Below are positions 34,738-56,325 of a DNA stretch of 64,000 nucleotides, one piece after another. The translations under genes were made by a program, and so were the position numbers. Under the pieces are notes generated by a model, which saw nothing but the letters and a program-made list of their open reading frames with translations, was not told where the DNA came from and did no database searches. The stretch comes from a virus (lineage: Duplodnaviria; Heunggongvirae; Uroviricota; Caudoviricetes), in the IMG/VR virus record IMGVR_UViG_3300032291_003166; one strand, 5' to 3'. Within the stretch, counting starts at the first letter, position 1, and every line of letters starts with the position of its first letter.

Positions 34738-34910
34738 ACCAATTATGTATTTCTTAATTGCTTAATAGCAAAACGGTAGTCATGCATTTCTGCATTAGTC
34801 ATTTTATTAATATTAAAGAATATCATTTGGTCTATTTTATAACCAGAAGATGTATTTTGACGTAACTTAACTAACTCTATAGTATCTATTACTAATTGTG
34901 TCATAACCTA

Positions 34911-35267: not shown

Positions 35268-35300
35268 ATAAAATAAATATAGGGGGGCTATTCACCCCCT
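35268..35300 (-). terminator. rho-independent terminator (GGGGGG-ctattca-CCCCC followed by a T-rich run on the minus strand)
   Basis: Minus strand reads AGGGGGTGAATAGCCCCCC then TATATTTATTTTAT, 10 nt downstream of the 35309-36103 stop. Confidence 0.6.
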
Positions 35301-35308
35301 TTGTTTAA

Positions 35309-36103
35309 TTAACAACTAACATATTCTGATGCTAGTTCCCATAACGCTTCATTGATTTTTAAATCCTGGCTAAAATTCTTAATGGTTCTTGCTTTACGAT
35401 TTTTAGTACCGTATCTAAATCCACCACCAATAATTTTTTCTTGTACTCGGTTATAAACACTCCACAAATCATTACCCTCATCTTCTTTACGTTCGATGTT
35501 TAATAAACCTTCAATATCAACAAACGTATTTGATTTTTCATTGTTGAAACGTAACTTAATTGCCTTGTGAGCGAAATCAACCATTTGGTCTTCAGTTAAT
35601 TCTGTTTGTGAAAACTGATCCATTTTCTCTACTAACATTGGGAACGAATCAACTGCTTCATTAATTTTAGTTTGTAATTCAGCAAACGTATAACCCATAT
35701 GACGTAATTTAAAATCACCATAACTTTGATCACAAATTACTAAACCATTTGAACATACTAATCTAAATAAACCAATCTGGAATTTAAATGAACTTAAACC
35801 ATCATGTGAATTAGTTAATAAAATTTGTGGATAAACTTTATCACCATCATTACCTTCAATCTCAATATTTGGATTGAAAAATTTAATCATGTGACGTTGA
35901 TAACCTACCGTAGTTGATTTACGTGCTTTAATTTCTTTAGCATCACATGGTAACCAACCTAATGACATCATATCATTAATAACTCTGTCAGTTGGAATGT
36001 GAACATAATGCTCACTCAAACCAATTTTTTGTTTAGTTTGAAATGTGCTTGGTGCTAATTCTTTAATCTGATCTAATGTTAATGTTTCGAATACTGTTTT
36101 CAT
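35309..36103 (-). CDS. hypothetical protein
   Basis: 264 aa ORF behind a promoter-motif copy. Confidence 0.5.
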   Translation of the reverse strand: MKTVFETLTLDQIKELAPSTFQTKQKIGLSEHYVHIPTDRVINDMMSLGWLPCDAKEIKARKSTTVGYQRHMIKFFNPNIEIEGNDGDKVYPQILLTNSHDGLSSFKFQIGLFRLVCSNGLVICDQSYGDFKLRHMGYTFAELQTKINEAVDSFPMLVEKMDQFSQTELTEDQMVDFAHKAIKLRFNNEKSNTFVDIEGLLNIERKEDEGNDLWSVYNRVQEKIIGGGFRYGTKNRKARTIKNFSQDLKINEALWELASEYVSC

Positions 36104-36145
36104 AACCTTTATTTTAATTTGTTAATAATTTATTTTTCTTATTTT

Positions 36146-36182
36146 TTCTTATATAATAAATATAACAAACTAACCCGGGTCA
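36146..36182 (-). promoter_or_regulatory. promoter-like element, hybrid (TTCTTATATAATAAATATAAC-N11-GGTCA)
   Basis: Upstream of 35309-36103. Confidence 0.6.
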
Positions 36183-36183
36183 T

Positions 36184-36438
36184 CTACAGGCTCCCTAACA
36201 CATTTGTCAGTTGGGCAAGTGTCATTACTCCAGTGTGACGTTTTACTATCTCACCATTTTTCTCAAATATAAGTGTAGGTACAGCTGATATTTGATATTG
36301 TAGTGCTAATTCTGATGCTGTGGATGCATCTATTTTCTGATATGGAGTATTTGTTTCAGCCATTACGCTTTCAAATACTGGACCGAACATGCGACATGGT
36401 CCACATGATGGGGTTGAGAAATATTTAACTGTTACCAT
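36184..36438 (-). CDS. thioredoxin
   Basis: MVTVKYFSTPSCGPC... with a CGPC active site. The track's upstream extension uses a GTG and overlaps the upstream gene. Confidence 0.8.
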   Translation of the reverse strand: MVTVKYFSTPSCGPCRMFGPVFESVMAETNTPYQKIDASTASELALQYQISAVPTLIFEKNGEIVKRHTGVMTLAQLTNVLGSL

Positions 36439-36439
36439 T

Positions 36440-36637
36440 TTAATTATTTTTAATTGTGTTTTGTAATCGTTCTTCGTATCTATTTTTAACTCGTCTAACA
36501 GCTGCTTCCGCTGATGATAATCCAAAGTTAAATACATCACCTTCCTCCGGGTGTTTACTTTTTTTAATTTCTTCTAGACACTCCTCAGTAAATGCGTCTA
36601 GTAATGTTTTAATAATTATAGCTGTTGTTCCCGACAT
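36440..36637 (-). CDS. small hypothetical protein
   Basis: 65 aa ORF, stop 2 nt before the thioredoxin ATG. Confidence 0.4.
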   Translation of the reverse strand: MSGTTAIIIKTLLDAFTEECLEEIKKSKHPEEGDVFNFGLSSAEAAVRRVKNRYEERLQNTIKNN

Positions 36638-36638
36638 A

Positions 36639-37043
36639 TTATTTTTTATTTAAAATTTCAAGTACTTTTTTCAAACCTCCTGATAATTGTTCATTAATCA
36701 TTTCTTCTTCTTCCTTAAAATTTAACTCAAGTTTATTATCAAATAATCTACTTAATTTAGTAAATAATTCAAAATTAATTTCAAGGTGATAACTATACTT
36801 ATGGTTTGTTATCTCTAATAATGAATGTTGTAATACAATATACAATCCTTTTTTCTCTAATTTAATAATTCTCTTATTAACTACAGGCATTAGGATTAAA
36901 TCTACATTATCATCTCTCAATGCTCGTCTAAAAATTGATGAACCAATTTGATGAGTAGTTAATATAGGAAACGCTTTATCCTTATTAAAATTTTTATACG
37001 ACCTAGTTAATTTTACTTTAAGTTTTCTAAATAATCTTTTCAT
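36639..37043 (-). CDS. hypothetical protein
   Basis: 134 aa ORF. Confidence 0.45.
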   Translation of the reverse strand: MKRLFRKLKVKLTRSYKNFNKDKAFPILTTHQIGSSIFRRALRDDNVDLILMPVVNKRIIKLEKKGLYIVLQHSLLEITNHKYSYHLEINFELFTKLSRLFDNKLELNFKEEEEMINEQLSGGLKKVLEILNKK

Positions 37044-37505: not shown

Positions 37506-37541
37506 TTAATATAATTAAATATATGTAACTGATTGGGGTCA
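37506..37541 (-). promoter_or_regulatory. promoter-like element, variant A
   Basis: Upstream of 37068-37493. Confidence 0.6.
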
Positions 37542-38243
37542 ACTATGTTTCCATATATACCCATGAGCTGTTTTTTGCTTTCCACTACAACATGATGATA
37601 TATCTCCACTGTTGATTCCTAATTCTTTAGATGCTGTTTTTAAGGAAGGCCAATGTTTTATTACATTCATATTTAAATCGTATTGTATTATTGGTTTTAA
37701 TCCTTTATCTATTTTATTTTCACTTATTTTTAAGACGTGTTCTTTAGATAATGTTTTACCTGACTTAGATAAACTTTGTTTTTTCTTCCATTCATCATTT
37801 CTAACCACCCCATAATTACCATGTTCATTTCCTTTCTTAGTAATATTATATTTTTGGCCTTTTTTTCTTATTCTAATTTTTTCTTTAGAATCATCGGAGT
37901 ATTTAGTTCCTAAATTATAATTATTACCTTTTTTAGATTGAGATATTTTATTTTTAGTTAAATCTGAGTGTTTGTCAGGGCCATTTCCTCCACTATTTTT
38001 ATTATAAAGAGCATAACCTAAATTTTCATAATATTTAATCCATTTTATTTCTAATGGTTTCCAATCAATCGACATAATAGAATCAACCTCTTCAATAACT
38101 TCAAATTTAATATCATTTCCAAATCTACGTTTATGATGATATTTTCTATGAGATATATTTAATGTTTTTCCAATATACACTGTTTTAGGATCATTATTGA
38201 TATTTGAAATTAAATAAATGTATGTCATGATTGTTATTTTCAA
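37539..38243 (-). CDS. GIY-YIG homing endonuclease (I-TevI-like, with NUMOD3 repeats and C-terminal HTH)
   Basis: YIYLISN...VYIGKT GIY-YIG core, followed by repeated K/S-rich NUMOD3-like units (SQSKKG, SKEKIRIRKKG, SKSGKT). Confidence 0.7.
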   Translation of the reverse strand: MKITIMTYIYLISNINNDPKTVYIGKTLNISHRKYHHKRRFGNDIKFEVIEEVDSIMSIDWKPLEIKWIKYYENLGYALYNKNSGGNGPDKHSDLTKNKISQSKKGNNYNLGTKYSDDSKEKIRIRKKGQKYNITKKGNEHGNYGVVRNDEWKKKQSLSKSGKTLSKEHVLKISENKIDKGLKPIIQYDLNMNVIKHWPSLKTASKELGINSGDISSCCSGKQKTAHGYIWKHS

Positions 38244-39366: not shown

Positions 39367-39402
39367 TTAATATATTTAAATATAGTAAAGGAATTGAGGT
39401 CA
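39367..39402 (-). promoter_or_regulatory. promoter-like element, variant A
   Basis: Upstream of the DNA ligase gene 38278-39354. Confidence 0.6.
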
Positions 39403-39464: not shown

Positions 39465-40100
39465 TCAGACCTTAGAAATGAATTCACTTCCTGGTTCAAT
39501 TTCAGAACTAGTATTTAATATACCTAAATTACCTAAATGTTCTTTATAATAATCATCTAACTCCCAAGTCACTTCACTTTGATAAGTTGATGGATTATAA
39601 TCTTCAATATGCTGAACTTGTTTATCAGTAAATATATTACCTACATATAAGAAATAATGATTGTAACATAGTAATTCTAAATTTTCTATTCTCCAATTTT
39701 TCTTATTACCATCTTTAAAGTTAAGTATTAAAGGTACTTTATAATCAATTACTCTTCGTTCTGCGAAACCACAGTTAGAACAACATTCTTGTAAATAACT
39801 TTCTTGTATTAACCTGTTTTTTAATTTTTCAGGAGTGTATGAGTCAACTGATACTCTACCTTCTATTATATCTAATAATGCTGGTTCTTTACCTCGGTTA
39901 GGTAAAAATTTAGATATACCTTTGCCTGATTGATTTAAATGTTTTTCAAATAGTGTTATACCATTTTCATCTGTAAAATTTTTAGCATATTGTTTATAAT
40001 GAGTGTATGAACAGTTAAGGTATCTAGCCGCCGCGCGATTAGATTTAGTCATTCTCATTGCTCGCTCTATATCATCTTTTAGAAATGGTTTTGGTTTCAT
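39465..40100 (-). CDS. HNH homing endonuclease with N-terminal HTH
   Basis: CSNCGF...NLELLCYNH HNH motif. Confidence 0.6.
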   Translation of the reverse strand: MKPKPFLKDDIERAMRMTKSNRAAARYLNCSYTHYKQYAKNFTDENGITLFEKHLNQSGKGISKFLPNRGKEPALLDIIEGRVSVDSYTPEKLKNRLIQESYLQECCSNCGFAERRVIDYKVPLILNFKDGNKKNWRIENLELLCYNHYFLYVGNIFTDKQVQHIEDYNPSTYQSEVTWELDDYYKEHLGNLGILNTSSEIEPGSEFISKV

Positions 40101-40102: not shown

Positions 40103-40519
40103 CTATTTAACGTCTGGATTATTTTTTAAGTTAACTAAAATATTCCATATGTCATCAGGTGTTTCTGAAGGTACTACATTATCGTTTTCATCATATAAAT
40201 CATTTATTGATCCATCTGGATTAAATTTATCATATAAATAAAAACTAATTACTTCATAACCTTCTTTACCAAAATGTAAAAGTATAAGTGAATCTATTAC
40301 TTGTAAAAACATCTCATCATAACTAGTAAGATCAATTTTTAATTCAGTTTGTGTTAAATGTGATCTGACTTGAGTGGCTTGAATATTTAAAAGTATTCCA
40401 TTAAATAAATCTTTTTGTTTATCAATATGGGCTTTCTTTTTACGTTTAACTGTAGAATTAATTTGGAGTAATTCATCTACTGCTTTCTTTATATCGTCAA
40501 AACTACTACCTTGTCTCAT
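40103..40519 (-). CDS. hypothetical protein
   Basis: 138 aa ORF. Confidence 0.45.
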   Translation of the reverse strand: MRQGSSFDDIKKAVDELLQINSTVKRKKKAHIDKQKDLFNGILLNIQATQVRSHLTQTELKIDLTSYDEMFLQVIDSLILLHFGKEGYEVISFYLYDKFNPDGSINDLYDENDNVVPSETPDDIWNILVNLKNNPDVK

Positions 40520-40833
40520 TTTATTTTATCTATTAATGTTTTAATTTCAATACATTTTTCATATTGTTCATCTACTTCAAACCATTTTAAACAAGATTCC
40601 AAAGCTGGGACCCACTGTTGTTTATTAAGTTCAATTAACATTTCTGTGTTACTGATAGTGAATAATACTGCTGTTTTTCTTTTATTATTAATAGCATCAT
40701 TAATACCTGCTAATGTTTCTTGGTATACTGCTTTTGAGAATACATCATTATTAATAATACTATTAACATCTACTTCACCATCACCATTAATAGTTAATAC
40801 CATTTTAGGAATTATTCTAGTTTTCTTAGCCAT
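40516..40833 (-). CDS. hypothetical protein
   Basis: 105 aa ORF, last gene of the glycosylation operon. Confidence 0.45.
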   Translation of the reverse strand: MAKKTRIIPKMVLTINGDGEVDVNSIINNDVFSKAVYQETLAGINDAINNKRKTAVLFTISNTEMLIELNKQQWVPALESCLKWFEVDEQYEKCIEIKTLIDKIK

Positions 40834-40839
40834 AATATA

Positions 40840-42024
40840 TTATTTACTATAAATATGAACTAGATTCTGTTCATAAGTATTCATAGCATTAATTTTAATT
40901 TTGAATATATCTAATTCAAATTCTCCTATTTCACCTGATTCAGCTATGATTTCTGGTAGTTGAGTTAATATATTAAATGCATCTTGGTTTAAGTATTGAG
41001 CGTCAAATTCTACTATAATATCTTCTTTAGGGGTATTATATTTTGTTACTTTAATTTTAGATTTTAAATCAACTTTAGTATGAGGTTGTTCATTTTCATA
41101 ATAAGCTGCTTCTAATACTCCCATTTCATCATCAAGGTATATTGTATCACACCATGGTTCTAGAGTTGCTAACATATTTAAATTACAAGTACTAACTACA
41201 AATGCAATATTATATTTGGGAGGTATAATTGGTTTCATAAATGAATCATGTTTTACAAAATGTCCCCACTTACGAATAAAATTTCTAGCATTTTTACTTG
41301 TTGTATGTAACCACTCCTCACTATTCTTACCAGCACTACCTCCAGCATGTTTATTAAATCTACTACCTCGGCTAGTAAAATGATACACTAAAGCATCCCA
41401 TGATTGAATTACTTTATATCCTTTTAATATAAAACGATTAAATAAATCACTATCCTCTTTAGACTGTGGAGCAAATAATTCATCATGTCCTCCAATAGCT
41501 AAAAAATCATCTTTATACATACACCATGGTGCAAATATACCTTCAGTTACTTTATCTTTATTTAATACTTCATTTTGTGAAGACCATTCATACCAATTAT
41601 CTTTAAACTCATCAGCTTCAATCCCAAAGTCCATAGTTATTTTTTCTGGTCCTGAAGGATGTAATGGTGGTTCAACCCTAGTAGCACTTACTACTATACC
41701 TGGTTTTAGATGTTTTAAAATATTACTATCTAAATTAGGTGAAGCAACCATATCAGCATGAAAAGCAAATATAATATCTGTTCGAGCCATTTCAATCCCT
41801 TTATCAAACATTCCTACTATACCAATACGTTCTGGGCCTGGATTGTGATATGTTATTAAATCGTTGTCATCTAGTTGTTTAATCCAATCTTGTGTGCCGT
41901 CTACACTCGCGTCATCTAAAACTAATATTTCATGTTTAGTTTTTAAATTACGAATTGATTTATAAGCTAATTGTAAAAATTCTAAATTGTTTCTACTTGG
42001 TAATACAAATGTTATTTTTTGCAT
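40840..42024 (-). CDS. family-2 glycosyltransferase
   Basis: VLPSRN...LVLDDASVDGT, a GT-A DxD signature. Confidence 0.65.
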   Translation of the reverse strand: MQKITFVLPSRNNLEFLQLAYKSIRNLKTKHEILVLDDASVDGTQDWIKQLDDNDLITYHNPGPERIGIVGMFDKGIEMARTDIIFAFHADMVASPNLDSNILKHLKPGIVVSATRVEPPLHPSGPEKITMDFGIEADEFKDNWYEWSSQNEVLNKDKVTEGIFAPWCMYKDDFLAIGGHDELFAPQSKEDSDLFNRFILKGYKVIQSWDALVYHFTSRGSRFNKHAGGSAGKNSEEWLHTTSKNARNFIRKWGHFVKHDSFMKPIIPPKYNIAFVVSTCNLNMLATLEPWCDTIYLDDEMGVLEAAYYENEQPHTKVDLKSKIKVTKYNTPKEDIIVEFDAQYLNQDAFNILTQLPEIIAESGEIGEFELDIFKIKINAMNTYEQNLVHIYSK

Positions 42025-42857
42025 AAATAATTTTTAATATAATCTTCTATATTTAATTTTGGATCCCATCCTAATAATTCTTTAGCTGATGTATCATCAC
42101 ATAATGTGATAAGTGCTTCTCCTGGTTTGTCATCTTTATATATAATTTCTTTACCAAACATATCAGCTATGTCTTTAATAGAATAATTCCATCCTCTACC
42201 TAGTTCGAATATATGTCCCCATTTCTGCTTCTCCAAAATTAAAGTTAAAGCATCTACAATATCATCAACATGAGTAAAATCTCTACGTTTTGTACCATCA
42301 CCATATATTGTTAATGGTTTATTTTTTTCAATACATTTTTCCCAAGCACCGATTAAAGTAGTATAACCGCCTTCTTTTAAATGGTATGGACCATAAACAT
42401 TATAAAATCTAGCTATTGAAGCATTAAGGTTAAAATGTGTTTGATATAGATAAATTATTTCCTCACCTATATCTTTACTAAATGTATACGGATTTTTAAA
42501 TTTGCCTGAATGGTGAGATGAACTACCCGCGTATATTAATGGTATATTATTCTCTGAACAATATTTAGCTAATTTAAAAGTAGCATTAGCGTTAGTTGTA
42601 AAGTAACTATATGGATCTTCAAATGATGGTTGTATTCTAGCTATAGCTGCTAAATGATATATTACATCTGGTTTCCAGTATGAATAATCATCTATATTTC
42701 TAATATCAAAATTAATATACTCTGCTCCATCCTGATGGTTTGATTTTAAACCAGTGTTGTAATTATCTAATGACACTACATCATAACCTTTACTTAATAA
42801 TTTTTTAATTAAATTAGTTCCTATAAAACCCGCTCCACCTGTAACTAATATTTTCAT
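42012..42857 (-). CDS. NAD-dependent nucleotide-sugar epimerase/dehydratase (SDR)
   Basis: MKILVTGGAGFIG Rossmann motif and YTFSK (YxxxK). Confidence 0.65.
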   Translation of the reverse strand: MKILVTGGAGFIGTNLIKKLLSKGYDVVSLDNYNTGLKSNHQDGAEYINFDIRNIDDYSYWKPDVIYHLAAIARIQPSFEDPYSYFTTNANATFKLAKYCSENNIPLIYAGSSSHHSGKFKNPYTFSKDIGEEIIYLYQTHFNLNASIARFYNVYGPYHLKEGGYTTLIGAWEKCIEKNKPLTIYGDGTKRRDFTHVDDIVDALTLILEKQKWGHIFELGRGWNYSIKDIADMFGKEIIYKDDKPGEALITLCDDTSAKELLGWDPKLNIEDYIKNYLCKK

Positions 42858-43741
42858 ATATATTGTTGAATTAAATCATTATAACGTTTAGCTGTTTGTT
42901 TTGGACTTAAATATTCTTTAATATTTTTCATATTATCTCTATAGTAGTTAATTTGATTCATATTCATTCCTCTAATCCAATCCATTTTATTTCTGAATTC
43001 ATCTTCATTATTGATATAAAATTCATAAGACTCACCTACTATATCTACTACTGATTCTTCTCTACTGGTTAATAATATTGATTCAAAACAAGATGCTACA
43101 GCTAATTTAGTACATGGTTTATAAAAATAATCTAATGTATTGTTTTCTCTAAAACTACTATGAATATTGTATTTAGTATGTTGATCATTACCATTTACTG
43201 TATTATCAAATACATCTACATATCCAATTAATTTATTTTTATCTAATTGGAATCCATTTAATCCTCCTATATAAGAAGCTATTTTAGTATTAGTAATATT
43301 TGGTGTTAGTAAATCTTCATTATCTATATCCCATTGGTGAGGAATAACAATATGTTTAACATTAATTAAATATTCTTCTGCTTTAATTTTAGAATATGAA
43401 TTAGTATGTATGATAACATCTAAATAGCTATAATAATCAATTAAATCACTATTATAAAATATATTAGTATGATTAAAGCAAAAATTATCTATCACATCGT
43501 ATATTAAAACATTATTATTTTTACTTAATGTTTCTAACATTTGATGATTTACTATATGTAAAGGCTCACCTACAAAAACTATTATATAATTTTTAATATC
43601 ATTAATTGTTTTTAAAAATGTATCACGTAACACATAAGGTATTTTTATATCATTATATTTTTCTAATGCTTGTACTGTTTGTAAGCCTCTCATCTTACAA
43701 GCCCCAGATGTACTATGTCCTACAAAAACTACATTTCTCAT
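42854..43741 (-). CDS. hypothetical protein in glycosylation island
   Basis: 295 aa ORF. Confidence 0.45.
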   Translation of the reverse strand: MRNVVFVGHSTSGACKMRGLQTVQALEKYNDIKIPYVLRDTFLKTINDIKNYIIVFVGEPLHIVNHQMLETLSKNNNVLIYDVIDNFCFNHTNIFYNSDLIDYYSYLDVIIHTNSYSKIKAEEYLINVKHIVIPHQWDIDNEDLLTPNITNTKIASYIGGLNGFQLDKNKLIGYVDVFDNTVNGNDQHTKYNIHSSFRENNTLDYFYKPCTKLAVASCFESILLTSREESVVDIVGESYEFYINNEDEFRNKMDWIRGMNMNQINYYRDNMKNIKEYLSPKQTAKRYNDLIQQYI

Positions 43742-44415
43742 AACTCATTAAATAATTTATATTCTAATTCAAAATTATCTTTTAAATATAAAAGTATATT
43801 TTTAAAATTTAAATAATTTTCTTCAGTCCAATTATTTTTATTGTGTTCTCCCCATATATGAGATTGAAAATAAATAGTGTTATTAATTATAGTTACAGAT
43901 TCATCATTATGAATTGAACTTTCACCCTGAAATATTTTATTATTTACTTTTATATTATTATTAAGGTGAGTATGAATAGCTGTGTATTTAAATACTTCAC
44001 TAACTGCATCAAAACTACCTTGTGTTGCTAACCAACCTGGCATTCTCCATCCTGTAGGTATATGACCTGCTTGAGTCCATTCATTTAAACTATCTTGTAA
44101 TCTATCTTTAGCTTGATTATAATCTAATTCTATAAATTCACATTCCCTACAACCTGGATCTACAACTGTACGTTTATGATAATGACCATGTCCTGCTAAT
44201 TCAATCCAATCATATTGTAACCAATATTGTATCCAATCTTTATGTTGTGATAAAGGAAATTTATCATGATAATTTGAAGGTGTAAATAAAACAAATTTAC
44301 ATCCAAATTCTTTATTTAGTTCTTTTAAATATTCTACTGATTGATCACCTTCACATCCCCAATTTTGTTCTGGGTGAGTATCATCAATAGCAATTATTAT
44401 ATCTAATTTATTCAT
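43738..44415 (-). CDS. hypothetical protein in glycosylation island (His-cluster, possible hydrolase/deacetylase)
   Basis: 225 aa with HGHYH. Confidence 0.3.
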   Translation of the reverse strand: MNKLDIIIAIDDTHPEQNWGCEGDQSVEYLKELNKEFGCKFVLFTPSNYHDKFPLSQHKDWIQYWLQYDWIELAGHGHYHKRTVVDPGCRECEFIELDYNQAKDRLQDSLNEWTQAGHIPTGWRMPGWLATQGSFDAVSEVFKYTAIHTHLNNNIKVNNKIFQGESSIHNDESVTIINNTIYFQSHIWGEHNKNNWTEENYLNFKNILLYLKDNFELEYKLFNEL

Positions 44416-45362
44416 AGTGAATTAAAATAATTTTCCATTTTGATTAAGAATTGATTTTCACTAATTAAATTTCTATAATTACCTCTAGCATCAATAGAAC
44501 ATTCTTTATAGAACGATTCATTATTTTTTAATTCAATAGCTAATTTTCTAGCTGATTCTAAATCACCTAAACCAACACTTAATTTAGGATGTATTTTTCT
44601 TTGAGTATCAGCTTCATTATACCCAATACATGGTATACCTAAAAAACCACAGTTCATAGCAAATGTACCAGCTGCTATTGTAGGCATTAAGTGTATAGCA
44701 TATTTAAACTCTGCTAAAGCATAAATCCATTCATTCCATTGTAAATAAGGTAAATGAGTCACTAATTGTTCTTCATTTGGTTGTTTACGACCCATACTAG
44801 GACAATATATAGGTAAATCAAATTCAGTAGCAACAACATAACTATCAAAGCCACCATACCATCTAGTAAAATTACCTCCAACTATAACTTTATCTTGTTT
44901 TTCAATTAATCTAGCATTTAAAACACTATCCTCAACCATTAATGAAGGTATATCTTGAATTGGTATTTTAGGATTAATACCTTTAAAATAAGGTATATCA
45001 GTTTCATTTTCAGTTAATATACCATCTACATTAGTCAATAAATTATAATGCCATATTTGCTGATGTACTGGTAAGTCTTGATAAATCCAACTTGGACCTT
45101 CTTGCATAAATAACACTTTATCAGCTATTTTTCTTGCTTCAGTTACTACATCTATTTCATATAATTTATCTCTATCAACAGGAGTTTTAGGTATTAATAA
45201 AATTGCTATATCATATTTTGCTTTTACATTATTAATATTAAATAATGAATAATGATCAGCTTGTAAAGCACACATTTGAGCAAATTCTACTCTCATATTA
45301 TTATGAGTTCTAGGTACTTTGCTAGTGAAATCCATTTGGGATAAAAAAATAATTTTTTTCAT
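44412..45362 (-). CDS. hypothetical protein in glycosylation island (possible GT-B-like)
   Basis: 316 aa ORF. Confidence 0.35.
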   Translation of the reverse strand: MKKIIFLSQMDFTSKVPRTHNNMRVEFAQMCALQADHYSLFNINNVKAKYDIAILLIPKTPVDRDKLYEIDVVTEARKIADKVLFMQEGPSWIYQDLPVHQQIWHYNLLTNVDGILTENETDIPYFKGINPKIPIQDIPSLMVEDSVLNARLIEKQDKVIVGGNFTRWYGGFDSYVVATEFDLPIYCPSMGRKQPNEEQLVTHLPYLQWNEWIYALAEFKYAIHLMPTIAAGTFAMNCGFLGIPCIGYNEADTQRKIHPKLSVGLGDLESARKLAIELKNNESFYKECSIDARGNYRNLISENQFLIKMENYFNSL

Positions 45363-45991
45363 TTTATTTCATTTAAGGGCATTTTATTACTATCATCTAA
45401 AGTTAATAATAATTTATCATTATCGTTGATTTGAGGATGCCATTCTTTAAAAGATAATTTTAATTCTTCTAATTTTTCAAATATAGCATCTTGTTTATAA
45501 CCTAAATATTTTATAATATATTCTCTAGGAAATTTATCTAAATGCCACTCACCCCATAATTCATTAATATAACTTAAAATATTAGTTTGGGTTAAGTGAT
45601 ATAATACATCATACTCAGCTCCTTCAATATCTAATTTTAATATAATATAATCATCTGAGTTAAAGTTATTTTTTATAAATTCTGATAAATCTATTGATTT
45701 GACTTCATTATATAAATTTTGATCGATTTTTCTATCTGATTTTTCTAAATATAAAGTTGAAGCATCACTCCATTCAGTTGAAATATATATTTTAACTATA
45801 TCTTCTTTATCCCATACAGCATTATTATATAAATGAACTTTAGAATCATTACTCCATTTATCAATTAATTTATCATATAATATAGGTACAGCTTCAAAGG
45901 AATATATTTCAATATCAGAACCAAATTGTTTTTTAGCTCCAACTATTGATTGCCCTCTATTTGCTCCACAGTCTAAAAATATTTTTCTCAT
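45359..45991 (-). CDS. FkbM-family methyltransferase
   Basis: MRKIFLDCGANRGQS N-terminal motif typical of FkbM methyltransferases. Confidence 0.5.
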   Translation of the reverse strand: MRKIFLDCGANRGQSIVGAKKQFGSDIEIYSFEAVPILYDKLIDKWSNDSKVHLYNNAVWDKEDIVKIYISTEWSDASTLYLEKSDRKIDQNLYNEVKSIDLSEFIKNNFNSDDYIILKLDIEGAEYDVLYHLTQTNILSYINELWGEWHLDKFPREYIIKYLGYKQDAIFEKLEELKLSFKEWHPQINDNDKLLLTLDDSNKMPLNEIK

Positions 45992-47106
45992 ACTGATAAT
46001 ATACTATTATTTAACTCGATTGCCAAATCTATTGTTTGATCCATATTTAAGTATTTATAACTTCCCATTCGTCCTCCAAAATAAACATTAGATTCATTTT
46101 TAATTAAATCAAAATACTTACTATATATTACTTGATTTTTATCATCATTAACTGGGTAATATGATTCTTTACCTATACTCCAGTCATCAGGATATTCTTT
46201 AGTAATAACAGTAAATGGTTGAGTACCAAATTCAAAGTGTTTATGTTCTATAATTCTAGTAAATGAATATTTTTCTTCAGGGTAACTCATCATAAATGTA
46301 CCTTGATAATCAGGTATATTTAAACGTTCATGTTCAAAGATTAATGAACGATATTCTAAAGGACCAAATTGATAATTAAAATATCTATCTATAGGACCAG
46401 TATAAATTATTTTATCAGCTAATGAATTAAAATATTCTTTATTTTCTAGATAGTCTATATTTAATTTTACTTCTATATTTTTGCTTAAATTTTCAAATAG
46501 TAAAGTATAATTTGGAATGCCTTGATATGGATTATAATAATAACTATCTTCAAATGTTAATCTAAAGGTTTGACGTTTTAAAATATTAGCTGGGATGTCT
46601 TTAGGATCTTTATTCCATTGTTTTTTTAAATAACCCTCATAAAATATAGAATATAATTCAGGACCTACTAATTGTAGTCCCCATTCATAAGCGTTTTTAG
46701 GATCAGGATATAATTCTTTATAAGGTTTAGTTACTTCTTCAATTTTAGCTTTAGCCTCATCTGGAGTGAGCACACCATAAACTTGATGTAGTGTTAATAG
46801 ATTAATAGGAAATGAATATATTGTATCCTTATATCTTAATTTGGGTCTACATGAAAAATGATTTACTGTAGTATATTTTTGTATAAATTCCCAAATATGT
46901 TTTTTATCAGTATTAAAAATATGAGGACCATATTTATGTACTTTAATACTATCTACATCTTCTGTATAACAATTGCCACCAATATGATCTCGTTTATCTA
47001 TAATTAAACAAGTTTTACCAGCATCAGTTAATAAACGAGCATTTACTAAACCATATAGTCCTGCTCCAACTATTAAGTAATCGTATTTATTTTTTAAAGT
47101 ATTCAT
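45988..47106 (-). CDS. glf: UDP-galactopyranose mutase
   Basis: YDYLIVGAGLYGLV...IDKRDHIGGNCYTE FAD motif, and colinearity with bacterial Glf along the whole length (HKYGPHIF, YTGPIDRYF, GPLEYRSL, YPVND). Confidence 0.9.
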   Translation of the reverse strand: MNTLKNKYDYLIVGAGLYGLVNARLLTDAGKTCLIIDKRDHIGGNCYTEDVDSIKVHKYGPHIFNTDKKHIWEFIQKYTTVNHFSCRPKLRYKDTIYSFPINLLTLHQVYGVLTPDEAKAKIEEVTKPYKELYPDPKNAYEWGLQLVGPELYSIFYEGYLKKQWNKDPKDIPANILKRQTFRLTFEDSYYYNPYQGIPNYTLLFENLSKNIEVKLNIDYLENKEYFNSLADKIIYTGPIDRYFNYQFGPLEYRSLIFEHERLNIPDYQGTFMMSYPEEKYSFTRIIEHKHFEFGTQPFTVITKEYPDDWSIGKESYYPVNDDKNQVIYSKYFDLIKNESNVYFGGRMGSYKYLNMDQTIDLAIELNNSILSV

Positions 47107-47986
47107 CTAAGTATTCATGTAAACAAATTTTCCAAGTTCTCATATAATTTTTATCTAACTTATTTAAATTAGCATTAATTAATTTTTCTGAATATGGTCT
47201 TGGAGCGAAATATTCTTGTTTAAAATGATCACTTTCTACTTTATGGATTACAACATCTAGATTAAGATGTTCTTTAATTGCTACTGCTGTTTCATATCTA
47301 CTAGCCTCACCTTGACTTACCATATTATATAAACCATATGGTAAATTTTCATCTATATGTCTTATTATTGAGTAAGCAAAATCTTTAGTATAAGTAGGTA
47401 CTCCTAATTTATCATCTACAACATATAATTCTTTAGCACCCGCTTCAATTTGTTTCATTATTTTATTAACAAATTTCTTATCTTTATCTGGTCCACCACC
47501 CATCATCCAACCTGCTCTGAATATCCAATATTTTTCGTAATCTTGATTTTGTAATAATTGTTCTACATAATATTTACTCTTACCATAAGCACTTAATGGA
47601 TATGGTTTATCATCTTCAGTATAGAATTCTTTATCATTACCAAATATACCTGCTGTGCTAATGAATACATAAGGTACATTTAAATCTTTAGCTAAATTAA
47701 ATAAGTGAATTGCAGCAATTGTATTTGTTAAATAACAATCATCTTTTTCTTGTTCAGCATACTCTAAATCTACTATAGCAGCAAAATTTAAAATTATATC
47801 TGGTTTGAATTCATTTACTAGTTTAGATGTATGTTCTAAATCTCTTATATCACAATAAACAATATTGTTTGAATTTGATAAATCCTTATCTGTGAGTAAA
47901 TAATCTTCAGTATCAAACATACTCTGTAATGTGGTACCTAACATTCCGTTAGCACCTGCTATAAACATTTTATTATATGGTATCAT
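47087..47986 (-). CDS. NAD(P)-dependent sugar reductase/epimerase (RmlD-like)
   Basis: FIAGANGMLG Rossmann motif and YGKSK (YxxxK). Confidence 0.55.
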   Translation of the reverse strand: MIPYNKMFIAGANGMLGTTLQSMFDTEDYLLTDKDLSNSNNIVYCDIRDLEHTSKLVNEFKPDIILNFAAIVDLEYAEQEKDDCYLTNTIAAIHLFNLAKDLNVPYVFISTAGIFGNDKEFYTEDDKPYPLSAYGKSKYYVEQLLQNQDYEKYWIFRAGWMMGGGPDKDKKFVNKIMKQIEAGAKELYVVDDKLGVPTYTKDFAYSIIRHIDENLPYGLYNMVSQGEASRYETAVAIKEHLNLDVVIHKVESDHFKQEYFAPRPYSEKLINANLNKLDKNYMRTWKICLHEYLDEYFKK

Positions 47987-48590
47987 AATAATTATTTTGA
48001 TGTTCTTGTTTTTCTATTGATTTATGATGTTTTATACAATAAATTTCATCTGTTGGTAGTAATGTATAATTTTTATGCCCAGTTATAACCTCATGAACTT
48101 TACTAGCCCAATTTATTTTAGGAGAGTTTTGTAATATACGAGTTTGATAATCTGGAAAATTGATCCATCCTTTTTCATTTATACTCCATCTCCATTTAGT
48201 TATGTGATTTTGAGTTAAACCATCTACTGTATTAATTCTAGGGACTAAAAATAAATCAACTGTTGGATTTTCTTGTAATAGTAAATGTATAGATTGAATA
48301 AATTCTTCATCCAATAACTCATCAGCATCAATCTGATAAATCCAATCTCCATTACAATGTTGTTTTAAATTATTTTTAAATGAAGAAAAATTAGCATTAA
48401 GTGGAAATTCAATAACCTTTATTTGTCCTTCATATTTTCTTAAAACTGAATATACTTCTTGAGTAGTGTTACCTTGATCACATTGAACTACTATCTCATC
48501 TTCTGATCTTTTAAACTTAGTAAGCTGAGTTAGTAGTTTATCTATTTCTAGATGTTCAATACAAACAGGTATAGCGTAACTGATTATCAT
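47973..48590 (-). CDS. small GT-A-like glycosyltransferase
   Basis: IDADELLDEE DxD-like motif in 205 aa. Confidence 0.35.
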   Translation of the reverse strand: MIISYAIPVCIEHLEIDKLLTQLTKFKRSEDEIVVQCDQGNTTQEVYSVLRKYEGQIKVIEFPLNANFSSFKNNLKQHCNGDWIYQIDADELLDEEFIQSIHLLLQENPTVDLFLVPRINTVDGLTQNHITKWRWSINEKGWINFPDYQTRILQNSPKINWASKVHEVITGHKNYTLLPTDEIYCIKHHKSIEKQEHQNNYYDTI

Positions 48591-48595
48591 ATTTT

Positions 48596-49030
48596 TTAAA
48601 TATCAAATAAACCTATGTAAGCACATGCTTCATCAAATGCTTCTTTATTAAATGTTTTTAATGTTTTAGGATCTGATTTGAATTTGGCTCCTTTAAGTTT
48701 TTCTTTTTCTTCATCAGTGGTTTCAGTTACTTTGATACCTGCCCAACCCCAATTTTCCTTAGTAGTACCATTTACAAATACAGTACCTTTATCAGCAACA
48801 TTAATTACAGTTGGATACCATACTTGATTATTGTCATCCACAAATCTAATATCTTTATATAATTCAGGCATTACTTCTTCAGTTTCAGTAACTAATTGTT
48901 CGCCATCAATCATTAATTCATTAGATGTAAATCCACATCCCATACAGCTCCATATGTTTATACCTTGTTGTTTATATTCATAACAAGCGTCAGATGAACA
49001 TCTTTTACATATTACTAATTTATCTTCCAT
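48596..49030 (-). CDS. zinc-ribbon protein
   Basis: CKRC...CMGC. Confidence 0.4.
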   Translation of the reverse strand: MEDKLVICKRCSSDACYEYKQQGINIWSCMGCGFTSNELMIDGEQLVTETEEVMPELYKDIRFVDDNNQVWYPTVINVADKGTVFVNGTTKENWGWAGIKVTETTDEEKEKLKGAKFKSDPKTLKTFNKEAFDEACAYIGLFDI

Positions 49031-50307
49031 TATTTTATTTTATTAAGTTTAGGTAGTTTTAATTCTACTTGTTTTACTATTTTTGATTCTAAAATATTAT
49101 CTAATACCTCAGCCATTTTATCAAATGAGAAATTATTTTTAGAATAATGAGCTTGACGTTTAGCTAAATCACTATATTTTCTATAATCACTATATATAGT
49201 TTTAAATGCTTTAGCTACTTCAGCATCATTAGGAGTAAACCATTGTGACTCAGCCAAAATCATATTTTGTGATTGTGCTGATTGGTGAACATTGGTTAAT
49301 AATCCATTTACTAAAATATTATAATCAGAATGTAAGAAATCTATATGGCCACTCCAATTACTTGCTATAATAGGTTTTTTAGATAAACTAAATTCTAATA
49401 ATGGTCTTCCAAAACCTTCACCTTTAGTTAAACTAACCATAGCTTTTACTTTAGGATGATTATATAAATCATTAATATCTTTATCTTCTAAATCACCATG
49501 TAGTAAATAGATGTTTGGTAAATTACCCTTTACAGTTTGTTTAATAGCATCTATTTTTTTAAGTATTTCTTCTCTATCCATAATAGAGTTTGTTACTTGA
49601 CTTGTTTTTAATATTAGACCAGGTTTATTAGTTTTATTTTTAAATGTTTCTAAAAATGCCTTAATCATATAACCTATATTTTTTCTATCCTCACCAATTT
49701 GTCCTTGTAACCAGTGGCCTACAAATAGAAAATTAAAATCTTCTTTAATTTCATCTAATGATTCTACCAAATCTCCTTCTAACAAACCATCAGGAACAAA
49801 ATTATATTTATTTAAATCAACTCCTTCAAATAATACTTCTATAGGTGATTTTAACTCAATAATTCCTTCAACTTGGTTAGTTTGATTATTACGTTTCTCA
49901 AATTTAGATTGTTCAAATACTGTTTTAGCATGGTTTGAAGATACTAAATTTAAATTCATTCTATTTAATCCTTCAATCCAACTCGGATCACATACTGTTG
50001 TTTCTATACCAGCTGTAATACCTATATTATATTTTCCAATTGGTTGAAATTCATTTGGAACTGTTACTTGTATCCAAACATCTGGCTGTTGTGGTAACTG
50101 AGGTTGTCGAAAAATTAAATCATATAATTGTTTATCCTCTGGATTATCTAAATCTAGAGCATTATATGATGTATTACCCCAACGTTGGGATAAAATTTTA
50201 ATATCGTATTTATCGTATTTTAAAAGTGCTTTAACTATATCTCTTGATCTAGCACCGTATCCTGACATTGTCTCAATAGGACAACTTATAAATAATAATG
50301 GTTTCAT
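49030..50307 (-). CDS. GT-B (GT4-like) glycosyltransferase
   Basis: TKGEGFGRPLLEF E-x7-E motif. Confidence 0.6.
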   Translation of the reverse strand: MKPLLFISCPIETMSGYGARSRDIVKALLKYDKYDIKILSQRWGNTSYNALDLDNPEDKQLYDLIFRQPQLPQQPDVWIQVTVPNEFQPIGKYNIGITAGIETTVCDPSWIEGLNRMNLNLVSSNHAKTVFEQSKFEKRNNQTNQVEGIIELKSPIEVLFEGVDLNKYNFVPDGLLEGDLVESLDEIKEDFNFLFVGHWLQGQIGEDRKNIGYMIKAFLETFKNKTNKPGLILKTSQVTNSIMDREEILKKIDAIKQTVKGNLPNIYLLHGDLEDKDINDLYNHPKVKAMVSLTKGEGFGRPLLEFSLSKKPIIASNWSGHIDFLHSDYNILVNGLLTNVHQSAQSQNMILAESQWFTPNDAEVAKAFKTIYSDYRKYSDLAKRQAHYSKNNFSFDKMAEVLDNILESKIVKQVELKLPKLNKIK

Positions 50308-50314
50308 AACTATA

Positions 50315-51760
50315 TTAATATACTAATTTATGAGTAATATGTTTTCTTTTTAATGGTTCTGTTTTAATTAATTCAAATTTTGGTTTTGGTTTAAATGTTT
50401 CTAATACAGTATTAATATGATTAATAACATTTTCACTCATATTTTCTGCTGACATCATTGATTCATTTCCGTTAACCCAATCATATGCTAATTTACCTCT
50501 ACGTTCTCTTTCTTCAGCACCTAATTCATAAACTTCCATAATGGCATCAGCTGCTTCTCTAAAATCAACTCTATCATCAAATATATAAGGTGTAGCAACT
50601 GAACCTTGTAAACTTACATTACTTGGAAATACAGGTATTGCCCATTCACCACATTCTTTATAAGTTCCAAAATGATTAGAACAGAAGTTTTCATCAAAAT
50701 CAATCCATTTTCCTTTTTCATCTACAAAACGCATTTGATCTTGCATACCACCAGTTACATTTGCAATAATCATCTTCCCACACATCATGCCTTCAGTTAA
50801 TGATAAACCCCATCCTTCATTTGAACTTAATAATATAACAGCATCTGATAAATTATATAATAGATTTATATGAGCTGATGGTAAACGTTGATCTGAAAAA
50901 TATATTTGTGAACATTGTTCTTCAGTAAATAACATATCTCGTACCGCATATAAATCAGTACCATGTTCATCAACAGGTTGAGTATGTAATATAATAGAGC
51001 ATTTATCTGCTTTTTCTTTAGGTAACTTATCTAAAAATAGTTTAAATGCAGCTAACATATCTGAAGTTGATTTACGTCTAATGTTTCTTGAATTATACAT
51101 TAATGTAAAATCATATTCTTTACCTCCAAAAAATAATTTTTTAGCATCTAATAAATTTTTATACTCACTATTTTTCTCATCAATAGGGAAGAATATTTTA
51201 TTATTAATACCATGTGGTACATAACTTAATGTTTTATCTTTAGCTTTATCACCTAATACTAATTTATTAATATTAAGAGTTTGTTTTGATATAGACATTA
51301 ATCCATCACATGATTCATAATATGATTCATTATATCTTGGAGCTGGATAATCATCCCAAATATTAAGATAAATCATAGGTATTTTCCTTCTGATTTCATT
51401 CTCAATCTGAAATAACCAAATCCAATATCTCGGGTCAGTAAAGAATAATAATGCATCTGGTTTTTCCAATTCAATTAATTGTCTAACTAACTGAGCGTCT
51501 CCATATCCATTAGTTGGATAAATAATTATACTTGAATCATCTATCCCAGCATGTGTATTAGTATCTGCACTAATATCTAAACGTTGTCCTTGTTCTGGAT
51601 GACTTATAGCTCCTCCTAAATTTACCCAATTAAATTGATGAGATGTACCTACTACAATCTCTCTAGCCATAGTAGCTATACCTGATGTAAAACGAATGTC
51701 ATCACAAAGTAAAAGTATTTTTTTACGTTTTGATTGTTCAATATAACCTTTTTTATTCAT
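50315..51760 (-). CDS. GT-B (GT4-like) glycosyltransferase
   Basis: SSNEGWGLSLTEGMMCG motif. Confidence 0.6.
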   Translation of the reverse strand: MNKKGYIEQSKRKKILLLCDDIRFTSGIATMAREIVVGTSHQFNWVNLGGAISHPEQGQRLDISADTNTHAGIDDSSIIIYPTNGYGDAQLVRQLIELEKPDALLFFTDPRYWIWLFQIENEIRRKIPMIYLNIWDDYPAPRYNESYYESCDGLMSISKQTLNINKLVLGDKAKDKTLSYVPHGINNKIFFPIDEKNSEYKNLLDAKKLFFGGKEYDFTLMYNSRNIRRKSTSDMLAAFKLFLDKLPKEKADKCSIILHTQPVDEHGTDLYAVRDMLFTEEQCSQIYFSDQRLPSAHINLLYNLSDAVILLSSNEGWGLSLTEGMMCGKMIIANVTGGMQDQMRFVDEKGKWIDFDENFCSNHFGTYKECGEWAIPVFPSNVSLQGSVATPYIFDDRVDFREAADAIMEVYELGAEERERRGKLAYDWVNGNESMMSAENMSENVINHINTVLETFKPKPKFELIKTEPLKRKHITHKLVY

Positions 51761-51778
51761 AACAGTTTTAATTTATTT

Positions 51779-51973
51779 TTAACTTTGACTTCCTGATAAT
51801 GCTAAGTTAGTATGATTATGAAGTTGTTTTTTATAATCTTCATCACTAAGATATAAATGAATACTTCGGTCTACTAATTTTTGTAATGAGAATTTTGTTC
51901 TAACACATAATATTTTGAACTCTTCAAATAATTCTTCATTAACTTTTACACTTGTTAATTTGTTCTTTTCCAT
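51779..51973 (-). CDS. small putative DNA-binding protein (RHH-like)
   Basis: 64 aa, first gene of the glycosylation operon. Confidence 0.3.
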   Translation of the reverse strand: MEKNKLTSVKVNEELFEEFKILCVRTKFSLQKLVDRSIHLYLSDEDYKKQLHNHTNLALSGSQS

Positions 51974-52011
51974 AATAATTTTAATTTGTTATATATAAAT
52001 ATATACAAATA

Positions 52012-53309: not shown

Positions 53310-53350
53310 TTCTTATTATATATTAAATATAAGTAACTTAATAGGGGACG
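53310..53350 (-). promoter_or_regulatory. promoter-like element, degenerate (box GGGAC)
   Basis: TTCTTATTATATATTAAATATAAG-N11-GGGAC upstream of 52953-53309. Confidence 0.35.
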
Positions 53351-53362
53351 CCAAGTTAGTTA

Positions 53363-56004: not shown

Positions 56005-56325
56005 TTATTTTATAAGATTTAATCTACAATCAAACCCATGATCATTTAGCAGGTCATTAGCTTGTCTAATATATAAACTTTCATTAGGAACGTTAGTTTG
56101 AACACTAATTGAGAACTTTCCTCCACCTATTGAATGCCCGTCATTATCTAATGCTTTAAGTGTGTTTTTTCCAATTGAGTGTGATTGCAATCCTTTATTA
56201 GTTTTAATACCAGTATTGATAAAGTTGATAGCATCTAATAACTCATCGATATCTGGTCCTATTAACTCAATATTAGATTGTTGTTCGTTTAAAATTTCTT
56301 TTACAATATCTTTTAATTTTATCAT
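56005..56325 (-). CDS. small hypothetical protein
   Basis: 106 aa ORF. Confidence 0.4.
   Translation of the reverse strand: MIKLKDIVKEILNEQQSNIELIGPDIDELLDAINFINTGIKTNKGLQSHSIGKNTLKALDNDGHSIGGGKFSISVQTNVPNESLYIRQANDLLNDHGFDCRLNLIK

Follow-up and report, generated by a model that had tools for sequence, protein, structure and literature searches.

Phage-made glycans on virus particles have, to our knowledge, been shown so far only for actinobacteriophages, whose virion glycosylation operons, among them those of mycobacteriophages Che8 and Corndog, were reportedly described by Freeman et al. in 2023. There, soluble phage glycosyltransferases (GTs) and methyltransferases act in the cytoplasm without membrane machinery, the glycans sit on capsid and tail-tube subunits, and the operons are found either outside the structural module or at its edge. 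The mycobacteriophage capsid and tail-tube glycans are also cited in PMC12619734, and clade-specific glycan clusters have been described in the Megavirinae (PMC10117803). Here we describe an island of 14 genes (40516-51973) in a 64,000-nucleotide stretch of a tailed-phage genome (IMG/VR record IMGVR_UViG_3300032291_003166; the window). We read it, with a probability of about one in two, as a self-contained system, presumably expressed late, that would glycosylate an acceptor provided by the phage, most likely virion proteins, with a conserved inner and a strain-variable outer glycan.

Like the actinobacteriophage operons, the island encodes soluble GTs and sugar-nucleotide enzymes without membrane machinery, and its gene content varies between lineages. 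Weak sequence links also join two of its enzymes, GT4a and GT4b, to actinophage GTs. It differs in being far larger, in having a core of three GTs and a Zn-ribbon protein, and in a cassette that would make its own rare nucleotide-diphosphate (NDP) sugars, which in the island's relatives comprise galactofuranose (Galf), amino, deoxy and nonulosonic sugars. Moreover, the hosts are Gram-negative and aquatic, and the system is known here from its genes alone. As compared with the giant viruses, represented by the fibrils of the Megavirinae (PMC10117803) and by the capsid glycans and the GT B736L of the chloroviruses (PMC9614988), the island resides in a bacterial virus of approximately 130-170 kb and the identity to B736L is only 18%. 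A core plus cassette at one fixed genomic site, as found here, has not been described for those viruses.

Phage DNA glycosylation pathways (glucosyl-hydroxymethylcytosine in the T-even phages; arabinosyl-5-hydroxycytosine in RB69/DLP3; Rhizobium phage RL38JI, PMC13326640), with which we grouped the methyltransferase/5mYOX/GT clusters (bioRxiv 10.1101/2023.12.21.572611), resemble the island in possessing several GT-A and GT-B enzymes and sometimes the UDP-galactopyranose mutase Glf or other sugar-nucleotide enzymes, in lying near replication and ThyA-family genes, and in the diversity of their sugars. The island is set apart from them by a window with no base-activating enzyme and a canonical ThyA, by GTs without detectable homology to known DNA GTs, by a promoter-like motif of the structural-gene class, and by a cultured relative whose DNA is free of sugars. 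Bacterial O-antigen and capsule loci and the phage seroconversion modules (GtrABC, Wzy-beta) resemble the island in layout only, with a variable centre of NDP-sugar and GT genes between conserved flanks, and draw upon the same enzyme families (RmlD, Glf, DegT, GDP-mannose dehydratase, NeuB, FkbM, GT2 and GT4). In contrast to these, the island has no initiating transferase, Wzx, Wzy, WaaL, ABC transporter, GtrA or GtrC, and the locus occurs in phage contexts only.

Among the marine cyanomyoviruses, S-SCSM2R carries 13 GTs, and P-SSM2 and S-SCSM1 belong to the same multi-GT group (PMC12801897); the 'moraphages' have four core GTs (PMC12619734). These too are phages of large size from aquatic habitats, rich in genes for GTs and epimerases. 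Their GTs are described as scattered or located in a hyperplastic region, with no conserved primer core containing a Zn-ribbon protein, fixed motif or swappable cassette reported in these accounts, and no GT4a homologue was detected in those cyanomyoviruses by tblastn. An earlier note on this DNA had put the usual number of GTs in a phage at no more than one or two. This was too strong, as Glf is present in 90 phage records, multi-GT phages have been described and the same island architecture is recurrent. We found no account in the literature of a locus that joins this conserved core to a cassette, nor of the promoter motif upstream of it, the Zn-ribbon protein within it or the Glf-linked protein discussed below.

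Gene content of the island

The window has a GC content of approximately 0.28, and nearly all of its coding lies on the minus strand. Its nearest cultured relative is Flavobacterium phage vB_FspM_immuto (immuto), a 160-kb myovirus with T4-like portal, capsid and baseplate, to whose proteins those of the window show 30% to 71% identity in partial synteny. No integrase was found among the annotated open reading frames (ORFs), so that the designation lytic-type is reasonable. The 14 ORFs of the island are all on the minus strand, and neighbouring ORFs either overlap by 1-20 nt or leave a gap that does not exceed 18 nt. Genes called independently on an ENA metagenome contig with an identical GT4a protein (L071) likewise number 14, with the same order and product lengths. 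The earlier note had announced twelve genes, although its own list also sums to 14. Its calls were otherwise right, as was its idea of a complete glycan pathway, and the sugar and glycosyltransferase island that it recognized was borne out by Pfam, NCBIfam and PDB searches and, for some proteins, PHROG matches.

The first core gene, p64 (51779..51973), specifies a 64-amino-acid (aa) protein with weak Arc/RHH-like similarity (PHROG 3180 'Arc-like repressor', E 1.3e-4), in agreement with the RHH-like regulator predicted previously; it is found in 63 related loci with a median identity of 77%. GT4a (50315..51760; 481 aa; Pfam Glycos_transf_1) is a retaining GT-B enzyme of family GT4 and the candidate primer of the glycan. 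GT4b (49030..50307; 425 aa; Pfam Glycos_transf_1; PHROG 2170, E 2.5e-20), the second core enzyme, is also of the GT4 type, has a median identity of 76% in 56 loci and is 47% identical in Microcystis phage Mel-JY01. Two Rossmann domains and a C-terminal EX7E motif place these proteins in GT4. Among solved structures, B736L is closest to GT4a in both sequence and fold. Other phage matches to GT4a and GT4b were weak and limited to actinophage GTs found by tblastn, namely Kitkat gp29, which has the tail terminator on one side and the tail chaperones on the other, and a TJE1 GT which adjoins an epimerase and a methyltransferase. The core continues with the conserved four-Cys Zn-ribbon protein (48596..49030; 144 aa; pI 4.6) and ends with GT2s (47973..48590), a 205-aa GT-A enzyme of family GT2 (Pfam Glycos_transf_2, E 1e-10) occurring in 41 loci at a median identity of 51%, with homologues in immuto, Mel-JY01 and Rhodothermus phage RM378.

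The variable cassette starts with a 299-aa RmlD-family NDP-4-keto-6-deoxyhexose reductase (47087..47986; Pfam RmlD_sub_bind, E 2e-50). Its TIGR01214 score of 167 bits is under the 224-bit cut-off, its best PDB matches are all dTDP-4-dehydrorhamnose reductases, and its gene was seen only in L002, L055, L071, L170 and L171. This is followed by Glf (45988..47106; 372 aa) and a 210-aa FkbM-family methyltransferase (45359..45991; TIGR01444, E 4e-22; PF05050), the probable role of which is sugar O-methylation. The semi-conserved gene for unk_316 (44412..45362; 316 aa) represents the most widespread cassette cluster, with members in 17 loci. Since its family profile matches the C-terminal domain of BshA (GT4; E 1.3e-4) and its counterpart in immuto, gp173 (23% identical), is annotated as a mannosyltransferase, unk_316 appears to be a divergent GT-B protein, which brings the island to five probable GTs. 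The adjacent gene codes for a DUF2334 protein (43738..44415; 225 aa; PF10096, E 4e-10), a domain which, to judge by its Pfam clan, is polysaccharide-deacetylase-like; it is present in 8 loci and adjoins unk_316 in most. The last cassette gene specifies unk_295 (42854..43741; 295 aa).

The conserved distal flank consists of an SDR NDP-sugar epimerase or reductase (42012..42857; 281 aa; PF01370, E 3e-46), all of whose NCBIfam equivalog scores are far under the cut-offs, and GT2L (40840..42024), a 394-aa GT2 enzyme (PF00535, E 1.5e-13). The island closes with unk_105 (40516..40833; 105 aa), which is conserved after GT2L in 7 loci. All of the island proteins are acidic (pI 4.6-6.3). The pairs of GT4-type, GT2-type and SDR enzymes, the methyltransferase and the Zn-ribbon protein are thus as first called. 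Of the four proteins listed as unknowns, unk_295 and unk_105 still have no family, and the other two have proved to be a divergent GT-B and a DUF2334 protein.

The identification of Glf as a very clear UDP-galactopyranose mutase holds: it scores 328.4 bits against TIGR00031 (equivalog cut-off 303.75), matches PF03275 (E 4e-63) and aligns over its full length with the solved mutases of C. jejuni (380 bits; residues 8-362 with 4mo2) and E. coli (369 bits; residues 8-370 with 1i8t). The FAD-binding Rossmann motif GAGLYG lies at residues 14-19 (PF13450, E 2e-20). The overlap of the RmlD-like and Glf genes is reminiscent of Fcf1/Fcf2, the dTDP-fucofuranose pair of E. coli O52, and UDP-GalNAc would be a further candidate substrate of such a mutase. 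However, because Glf is present without the RmlD-like gene in L080 and L168, dTDP-fucofuranose is the less likely product and UDP-Galf the simpler reading. Neither a nucleotidyltransferase nor a 4,6-dehydratase was found in the island; the precursors, UDP-Gal or UDP-Glc and dTDP-4-keto-6-deoxyhexose, would therefore have to come from the host.

Each of the six Glf-carrying loci (L055, L071, L080, L168, L170 and L171), which comprise five different contexts, also encodes a homologue of unk_295, and in two of the five its gene directly adjoins Glf. It is absent from cassettes lacking Glf, except for one 4.3-kb fragment which may end before Glf, whereas unk_316 and the DUF2334 gene are also found without Glf. 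Based upon this co-occurrence, we propose unk_295 as a candidate galactofuranosyltransferase using UDP-Galf. It gave no match in Pfam, NCBIfam, PHROG or PDB-profile searches. A single-sequence resemblance to streptococcal Gtf3 (E 0.1) was unconfirmed, the PDB profile search and profile-profile comparisons with unk_316 and GT4a being negative.

A conserved core and a hypervariable cassette

Scanning IMG/VR with GT4a yielded 64 loci with a common gene order: PD-(D/E)XK nuclease, p64, GT4a, GT4b, Zn-ribbon protein, GT2s and then a variable block, followed in closer relatives by SDR, GT2L, unk_105, a 138-aa protein (p138) and an HNH gene. In total, more than 75 viral or mis-binned contigs contain the core of p64, GT4a, GT4b, Zn-ribbon protein and GT2. 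Median identity across the loci declines along the locus, from 73-76% for GT4a and GT4b to 51% for GT2s. At a threshold of at least 35% identity, the 299 cassette proteins of 42 loci fell into 140 clusters. A Pfam census of the cluster representatives returned 16 SDR epimerases/dehydratases, 15 GDP-mannose dehydratase-type enzymes, about 12 methyltransferases plus seven of the FkbM family, 11 GT2 enzymes and nine DegT aminotransferases, together with mannose-6-phosphate isomerase, NeuB, C-methyltransferase, GT11 and hexapeptide acetyltransferases. Even among close relatives, whose GT4a proteins are 78-95% identical, the cassettes contain different genes. L005 possesses FkbM, unk_316 and DUF2334 but no Glf; L055 has the RmlD-like enzyme, Glf, unk_316, DUF2334 and unk_295 but no FkbM; and immuto has aminotransferases and an acetyltransferase in place of the RmlD-like enzyme, Glf and FkbM of the window.

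Between the window and immuto the identities are 59% for GT4a, 61% for GT4b, 45% for the Zn-ribbon protein, 48% for GT2s and 71% for both SDR and GT2L. GT4a and GT4b are among the best-conserved proteins of the pair; the baseplate wedge protein and ThyA, for comparison, show 47% and 55% identity. The sole DNA-level match of the island to immuto by megablast is the SDR-GT2L segment (73.8% identity). Conserved arms thus flank the cassette on both sides, an arrangement that would favour its exchange by recombination.

The core is present in cultured phages of three host phyla, represented by immuto (Flavobacterium), Mel-JY01 (Microcystis) and RM378 (Rhodothermus). In Mel-JY01 the order is clamp loader, DUF1599, PD-(D/E)XK, GT4a, GT4b, GT2s, methyltransferase and further GTs, while in RM378 GT4a, GT4b and a GT2s homologue adjoin polymerase and ribonucleotide reductase genes. 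A pattern scan of 185,579 bacterial and archaeal species (one genome each) recovered only 14 contigs, all from metagenome-assembled genomes (MAGs) with incongruent taxonomy, and those long enough to reveal neighbours all had the phage gene order. The core is therefore old and found only in phage contexts. Its retention in phages of three host phyla suggests that the acceptor is supplied by the phage rather than by a particular host envelope. On one 185-kb contig (L076) the core has almost no cassette, so the minimal system consists of three GTs and the Zn-ribbon protein.

The MAG labels of L076 (CAYVDC010000001.1, 184.7 kb), L077, L079, L082 and similar contigs include Saccharibacteria, Woesearchaeota, Methanobacteriota and Nisaea, among others. 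Island-bearing phage contigs in such MAGs are almost certainly binning errors in public genomes.

Promoter-like motifs

A promoter-like motif, TATATATTTATATA (class NATATTTAT[AT]), lies at 51990..52005 on the minus strand, approximately 21 nt upstream of the p64 start codon, and probably marks the start of the island transcription unit. In all 46 distinct related loci an invariant TATATTTAT(A) occurs at a fixed distance upstream of this codon. The immuto genome contains 28 occurrences of NATATTTAT[AT], 19 of which lie 3-45 nt upstream of a same-strand ORF, where chance would place 3.6% (p 1.5e-21). Among the genes thus preceded are those for tail sheath, tail tube, baseplate hub, large terminase, a tail spike and a virion structural protein, as well as several members of the baseplate/fibre module and gp182, the p64 homologue. 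In the window, 10 of 17 occurrences lie upstream of ORFs (p 8e-11), three preceding baseplate genes, one p64 and one unk_105; the last, CATATTTATA, is a late-type copy 15 nt upstream of the unk_105 start codon. On the minus strand the class NATATTTAT[AT] is also found upstream of the genes at 1350-2444, 5630-6085, 9515-9880, 25756-25971, 34911-35267, 37539-38228 and 56005-56325. Read along transcription, its core corresponds to the T4 late box TATAAATA in reverse complement.

A second motif, TTGACC-N14-TATATTTAAWTATATTA, is found in front of the DNA ligase gene and of many small ORFs. The DUF1599/PD-(D/E)XK pair next to the island carries a close variant of it in which the exact TTGACC box is missing. 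Since p64 has its motif in common with structural genes while these neighbours carry the other one, we take the island to form a unit of its own, belonging to the structural-gene, presumably late, class.

In its fuller form the second element reads TTGACC-N14-TATATTTAA(A/T)TATATTA, with the variant TTATCTTTATTATATAAGAA, and is usually followed by AAAGGTT and ATG. It looks like an early or middle promoter with the ribosome-binding site of the phage. Copies on the minus strand were located at 21381-21397, 22848-22864, 23788-23804, 33756-33772, 37507-37523 and 39368-39384, and variants in the gaps at 14103-14186, 15665-15700, 17249-17341, 24240-24402, 34687-34910, 36104-36183, 53310-53362 and 59834-59884. 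Close variants precede several ORFs in addition to the DUF1599 gene. Scans for sigma-70 promoters, terminators, the Bacteroidetes -7 element (TAnnTTTG) and the T4 late box revealed no enrichment over shuffled sequences and are uninformative as to operon structure.

The acceptor of the glycan

The earlier note had left three options for the glycan, namely virion proteins, host surface glycans and a complex DNA sugar hypermodification, and held that the nearby ThyA-like gene (57312-58313) could not be told by eye from a dUMP hydroxymethylase. The two can in fact be distinguished. The product is 52% identical to E. coli ThyA, scores above the NF002496 cut-off and keeps L143, C146, D169 and N177, as do the ThyA proteins of immuto, L016, L019 and L076. 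Among the diagnostic substitutions, N177D marks dCMP-using enzymes, L143D/E hydroxymethylases and D169N 5-hydroxy-dCMP synthases (PMC13326640). By these criteria the window enzyme is a canonical thymidylate synthase, predicted to make dTMP rather than hydroxymethyl-dU, hydroxymethyl-dC or 5-hydroxy-dC. At 333 aa, against 264 aa in E. coli, it contains several insertions, the largest of about 38 residues after W83; the immuto homologue has 423 aa.

DNA would be the acceptor if the GTs built an oligosaccharide on a modified base as protection against restriction, in the manner of the T-even phages, RB69/DLP3 and RL38JI. The island does lie amid replication genes, adjoining a DUF1599 'nucleotide modification associated domain' protein and the PD-(D/E)XK nuclease, and is 5 kb from ThyA and from a non-specific nuclease. 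Its three core GTs match the known maximum for a DNA glycan, a trisaccharide; Glf is among the candidate genes of the RL38JI Gal-Glc-Glc-5-hydroxycytosine pathway in the authors' fine annotation (PMC13326640); and hypervariable sugars would suit an arms race with type IV restriction. However, the 64-kb window yielded no hydroxymethylase, cytosine methyltransferase or TET-like/5mYOX enzyme. No homology could be detected between the core GTs and known DNA GTs, and tblastn of GT4a, GT4b and GT2s against 50,697 phage records matched no GT of the Straboviridae or Pootjesviridae. Five or six GTs plus methylation would create an implausibly bulky base, and the acidity of all the island proteins also speaks against DNA. 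Furthermore, liquid chromatography with UV and tandem mass spectrometry of immuto virion DNA revealed dA, dC, dT and a 324-Da formyl-preQ1 (fdPreQ1) replacing dG, and no glycosylated nucleoside (PMC10516641). Because ThyA is canonical and the DNA of immuto lacks sugars, DNA glycosylation now appears very unlikely. Immuto (L068) carries a complete FolE/QueD/QueE/QueC/QueF/DpdA/DpdN set at 18607-37015, between ThyA and polymerase. The syntenic interval of the window, approximately 5 kb from ThyA to the island, has none of these deazaguanine genes, which suggests that the two phages probably differ in DNA modification. Linkage of the GT core to the 7-deazaguanine system, giving glycosylated preQ1, was considered and rejected, since none of the 78 loci searched has a preQ1/DpdA (Que) gene closer than 10 kb to the core, the window has no such gene, and the modification in immuto is formyl- and not glycosyl-preQ1.

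The cassettes also bear upon where the glycan is completed. No polytopic protein was found among the 299 cassette proteins or in the window island. Five cassette proteins have one or two hydrophobic stretches, and these are members of soluble families (one each from the RmlD-like enzymes, GTs, methyltransferases, acetyltransferases and DegT aminotransferases). Priming phosphoglycosyltransferase, flippase, polymerase, ligase, ABC exporter, GtrA and GtrC are absent from the window island, and are not represented among the 25 most frequent Pfam families of the 140 cluster representatives from the 42 cassettes. Since no membrane-step proteins were found, assembly must end in the cytoplasm unless host machinery is borrowed. 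Such borrowing is the basis of the host-surface option, in which the GTs would act upon host lipid-linked intermediates (Und-PP-sugar or lipid A-core) at the cytoplasmic face, and the host would display an altered lipopolysaccharide, capsule or exopolysaccharide. The benefit could be a block to superinfection, less sticking of progeny to debris, or changed grazing or aggregation. The layout of the island is indeed that of an O-antigen or capsule locus, with NDP-sugar and GT genes in a variable centre between conserved flanks; the PHROG category of its GTs is 'moron/auxiliary metabolic gene', its GT2 enzymes match GtrB-like families, and modification of the host surface is favoured by the authors who described the multi-GT cyanophages (PMC12801897). 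The absence of membrane steps, including the GtrA and GtrC partners, weakens this option. It is weakened as well by the high conservation of the core in phages of Bacteroidota, Cyanobacteria and Rhodothermus, the surface glycans of which differ, although all three known host phyla are diderm and a common universal lipid acceptor is thus possible. The structural-gene motif points the same way, as a change of surface just before lysis would have little time to matter, and a complex hypervariable glycan exceeds what is needed to mask a receptor. The host-surface option is accordingly unlikely, while still a rival.

Somewhat less likely again is another cytoplasmic acceptor, such as a glycolipid, a free oligosaccharide, a glycosylated small molecule, a host protein or the co-encoded Zn-ribbon protein, serving in takeover, anti-defence or storage. 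The relatives of the GT4 fold include BshA, PimA, sucrose-phosphate synthase and the tetrahydrobiopterin GT, the conserved Zn-ribbon protein matches no known fold and could be a carrier or an adaptor, and the acceptor itself is still a matter of inference. On the other hand, neither inactivation of a host protein nor production of a metabolite would need a hypervariable multi-sugar, a diversity more typical of exposed and recognized surfaces, and the promoter class is the one common to virion genes.

Of the three options, glycosylation of virion proteins thus appears to be the best survivor. It would fit the gene identities, the core-plus-cassette architecture, the absence of membrane steps, the canonical ThyA and the motif held in common with structural genes. 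We propose that the island would be the cytoplasmic glycan-assembly module of a virulent, T4-distant myovirus akin to immuto. The phage-only core (GT4a, GT4b, the Zn-ribbon protein and the small GT2) would lay the inner sugars on a lineage-supplied acceptor, likely one or more virion proteins, and the exchangeable cassette would add unusual donors and outer transferases. In the window the cassette could give UDP-Galf (Glf), a 6-deoxyhexose (RmlD-like enzyme), O-methylation (FkbM) and possibly de-N-acetylation (DUF2334), and would also contribute the divergent GT-B unk_316 and the Glf-linked candidate Galf-transferase unk_295; the distal SDR and GT2L would then finish the glycan. By swapping the cassette between the core arm and the SDR/GT2L arm, close relatives would produce particles with different glycans, perhaps amounting to a serotype-like coat.

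Several points weigh against this proposal. The island lies in a region of replication and nucleotide metabolism (clamp loader, DUF1599, nuclease, ligase) and not among the structural genes, and the capsid genes are outside the window. Late expression is suggested by a shared sequence motif, which also precedes non-structural genes such as GroES and a lectin-like gene. B736L, the nearest solved relative of GT4a, is itself without a known acceptor (PMC9614988), and soluble GTs can also act upon lipid-linked intermediates that are made and exported by the host. The glycan, its acceptor, its late expression and its role, be it shielding, stability or altered particle interactions, are all deduced from genes.

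Other features of the window

Baseplate genes occupy 1-11.7 kb, and elsewhere there are many small ORFs and one tRNA-Met gene. The genes for replication and nucleotide metabolism include DNA ligase, clamp loader, ThyA, the PD-(D/E)XK nuclease, a non-specific nuclease and homing endonucleases. PHROGs returned nothing for ten unannotated ORFs, nine large ones and p138. Just downstream of the island, a GIY-YIG/NUMOD homing endonuclease (37539-38243) and an HNH endonuclease (39465-40100) flank the DNA ligase, and in related loci, too, the HNH gene is regularly found beside the island. Such enzymes could help the nearby cassette to be exchanged. The interval from ThyA to the clamp loader contains a gene for a DNA/RNA non-specific endonuclease (56357-56992; Endonuclease_NS, E 1e-34), which is possibly used for degradation of host DNA.

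An AAA (MoxR-like) ATPase followed by a DUF2201 metallopeptidase/VWA protein is encoded at 12921-15664, a pair usually found together in bacteria. The region of small ORFs contains an RNA ligase (18144-19274), an NlpC/P60 peptidase (17521-18048) and an SPFH/Band-7 protein (31521-32471). At 24001-28000 the GC content rises to approximately 0.345, compared with 0.26-0.30 elsewhere, there are few ORFs of at least 100 aa, and G-rich intergenic stretches occur, for example at 24589-24681 and 26150-26306; no RNA family was detected in this interval using Rfam. The sole tRNA-Met gene (CAT; 22352-22426) shares 88% identity with those of crAss-like phages from the faeces of humans and pigs.

Significance

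As a broader and more tentative proposal, the locus may be a viral 'serotype locus' in widespread aquatic myoviruses infecting Bacteroidota, cyanobacteria and Rhodothermus. A phage-exclusive primer core, consisting of two GT4 enzymes, a Zn-ribbon protein of a new fold and a GT2 enzyme, would be expressed from a structural-gene promoter and combined with freely exchanged rare-sugar cassettes, giving rise to differing self-made coats. It would be the first such locus in phages of Gram-negative hosts, and unk_295 would represent a new family of galactofuranosyltransferases. The question is directly testable, since the cultured member immuto grows on Flavobacterium sp. LMO8. The locus is also a compact source of soluble rare-sugar enzymes (for Galf, amino, deoxy and methyl sugars and nonulosonic acids), and includes a conserved protein that matches no known fold, besides the candidate Galf-transferase. 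A further lesson is that GTs near a ThyA gene should not be taken as a sign of DNA glycosylation before the active-site residues of ThyA have been checked. If our proposal is true, glycosylated virions would be common among abundant aquatic phages and would differ from one another in the manner of serotypes, which would bear upon the stability and stickiness of the particles, upon their grazing and recognition, and upon the definition of phage 'strains'.

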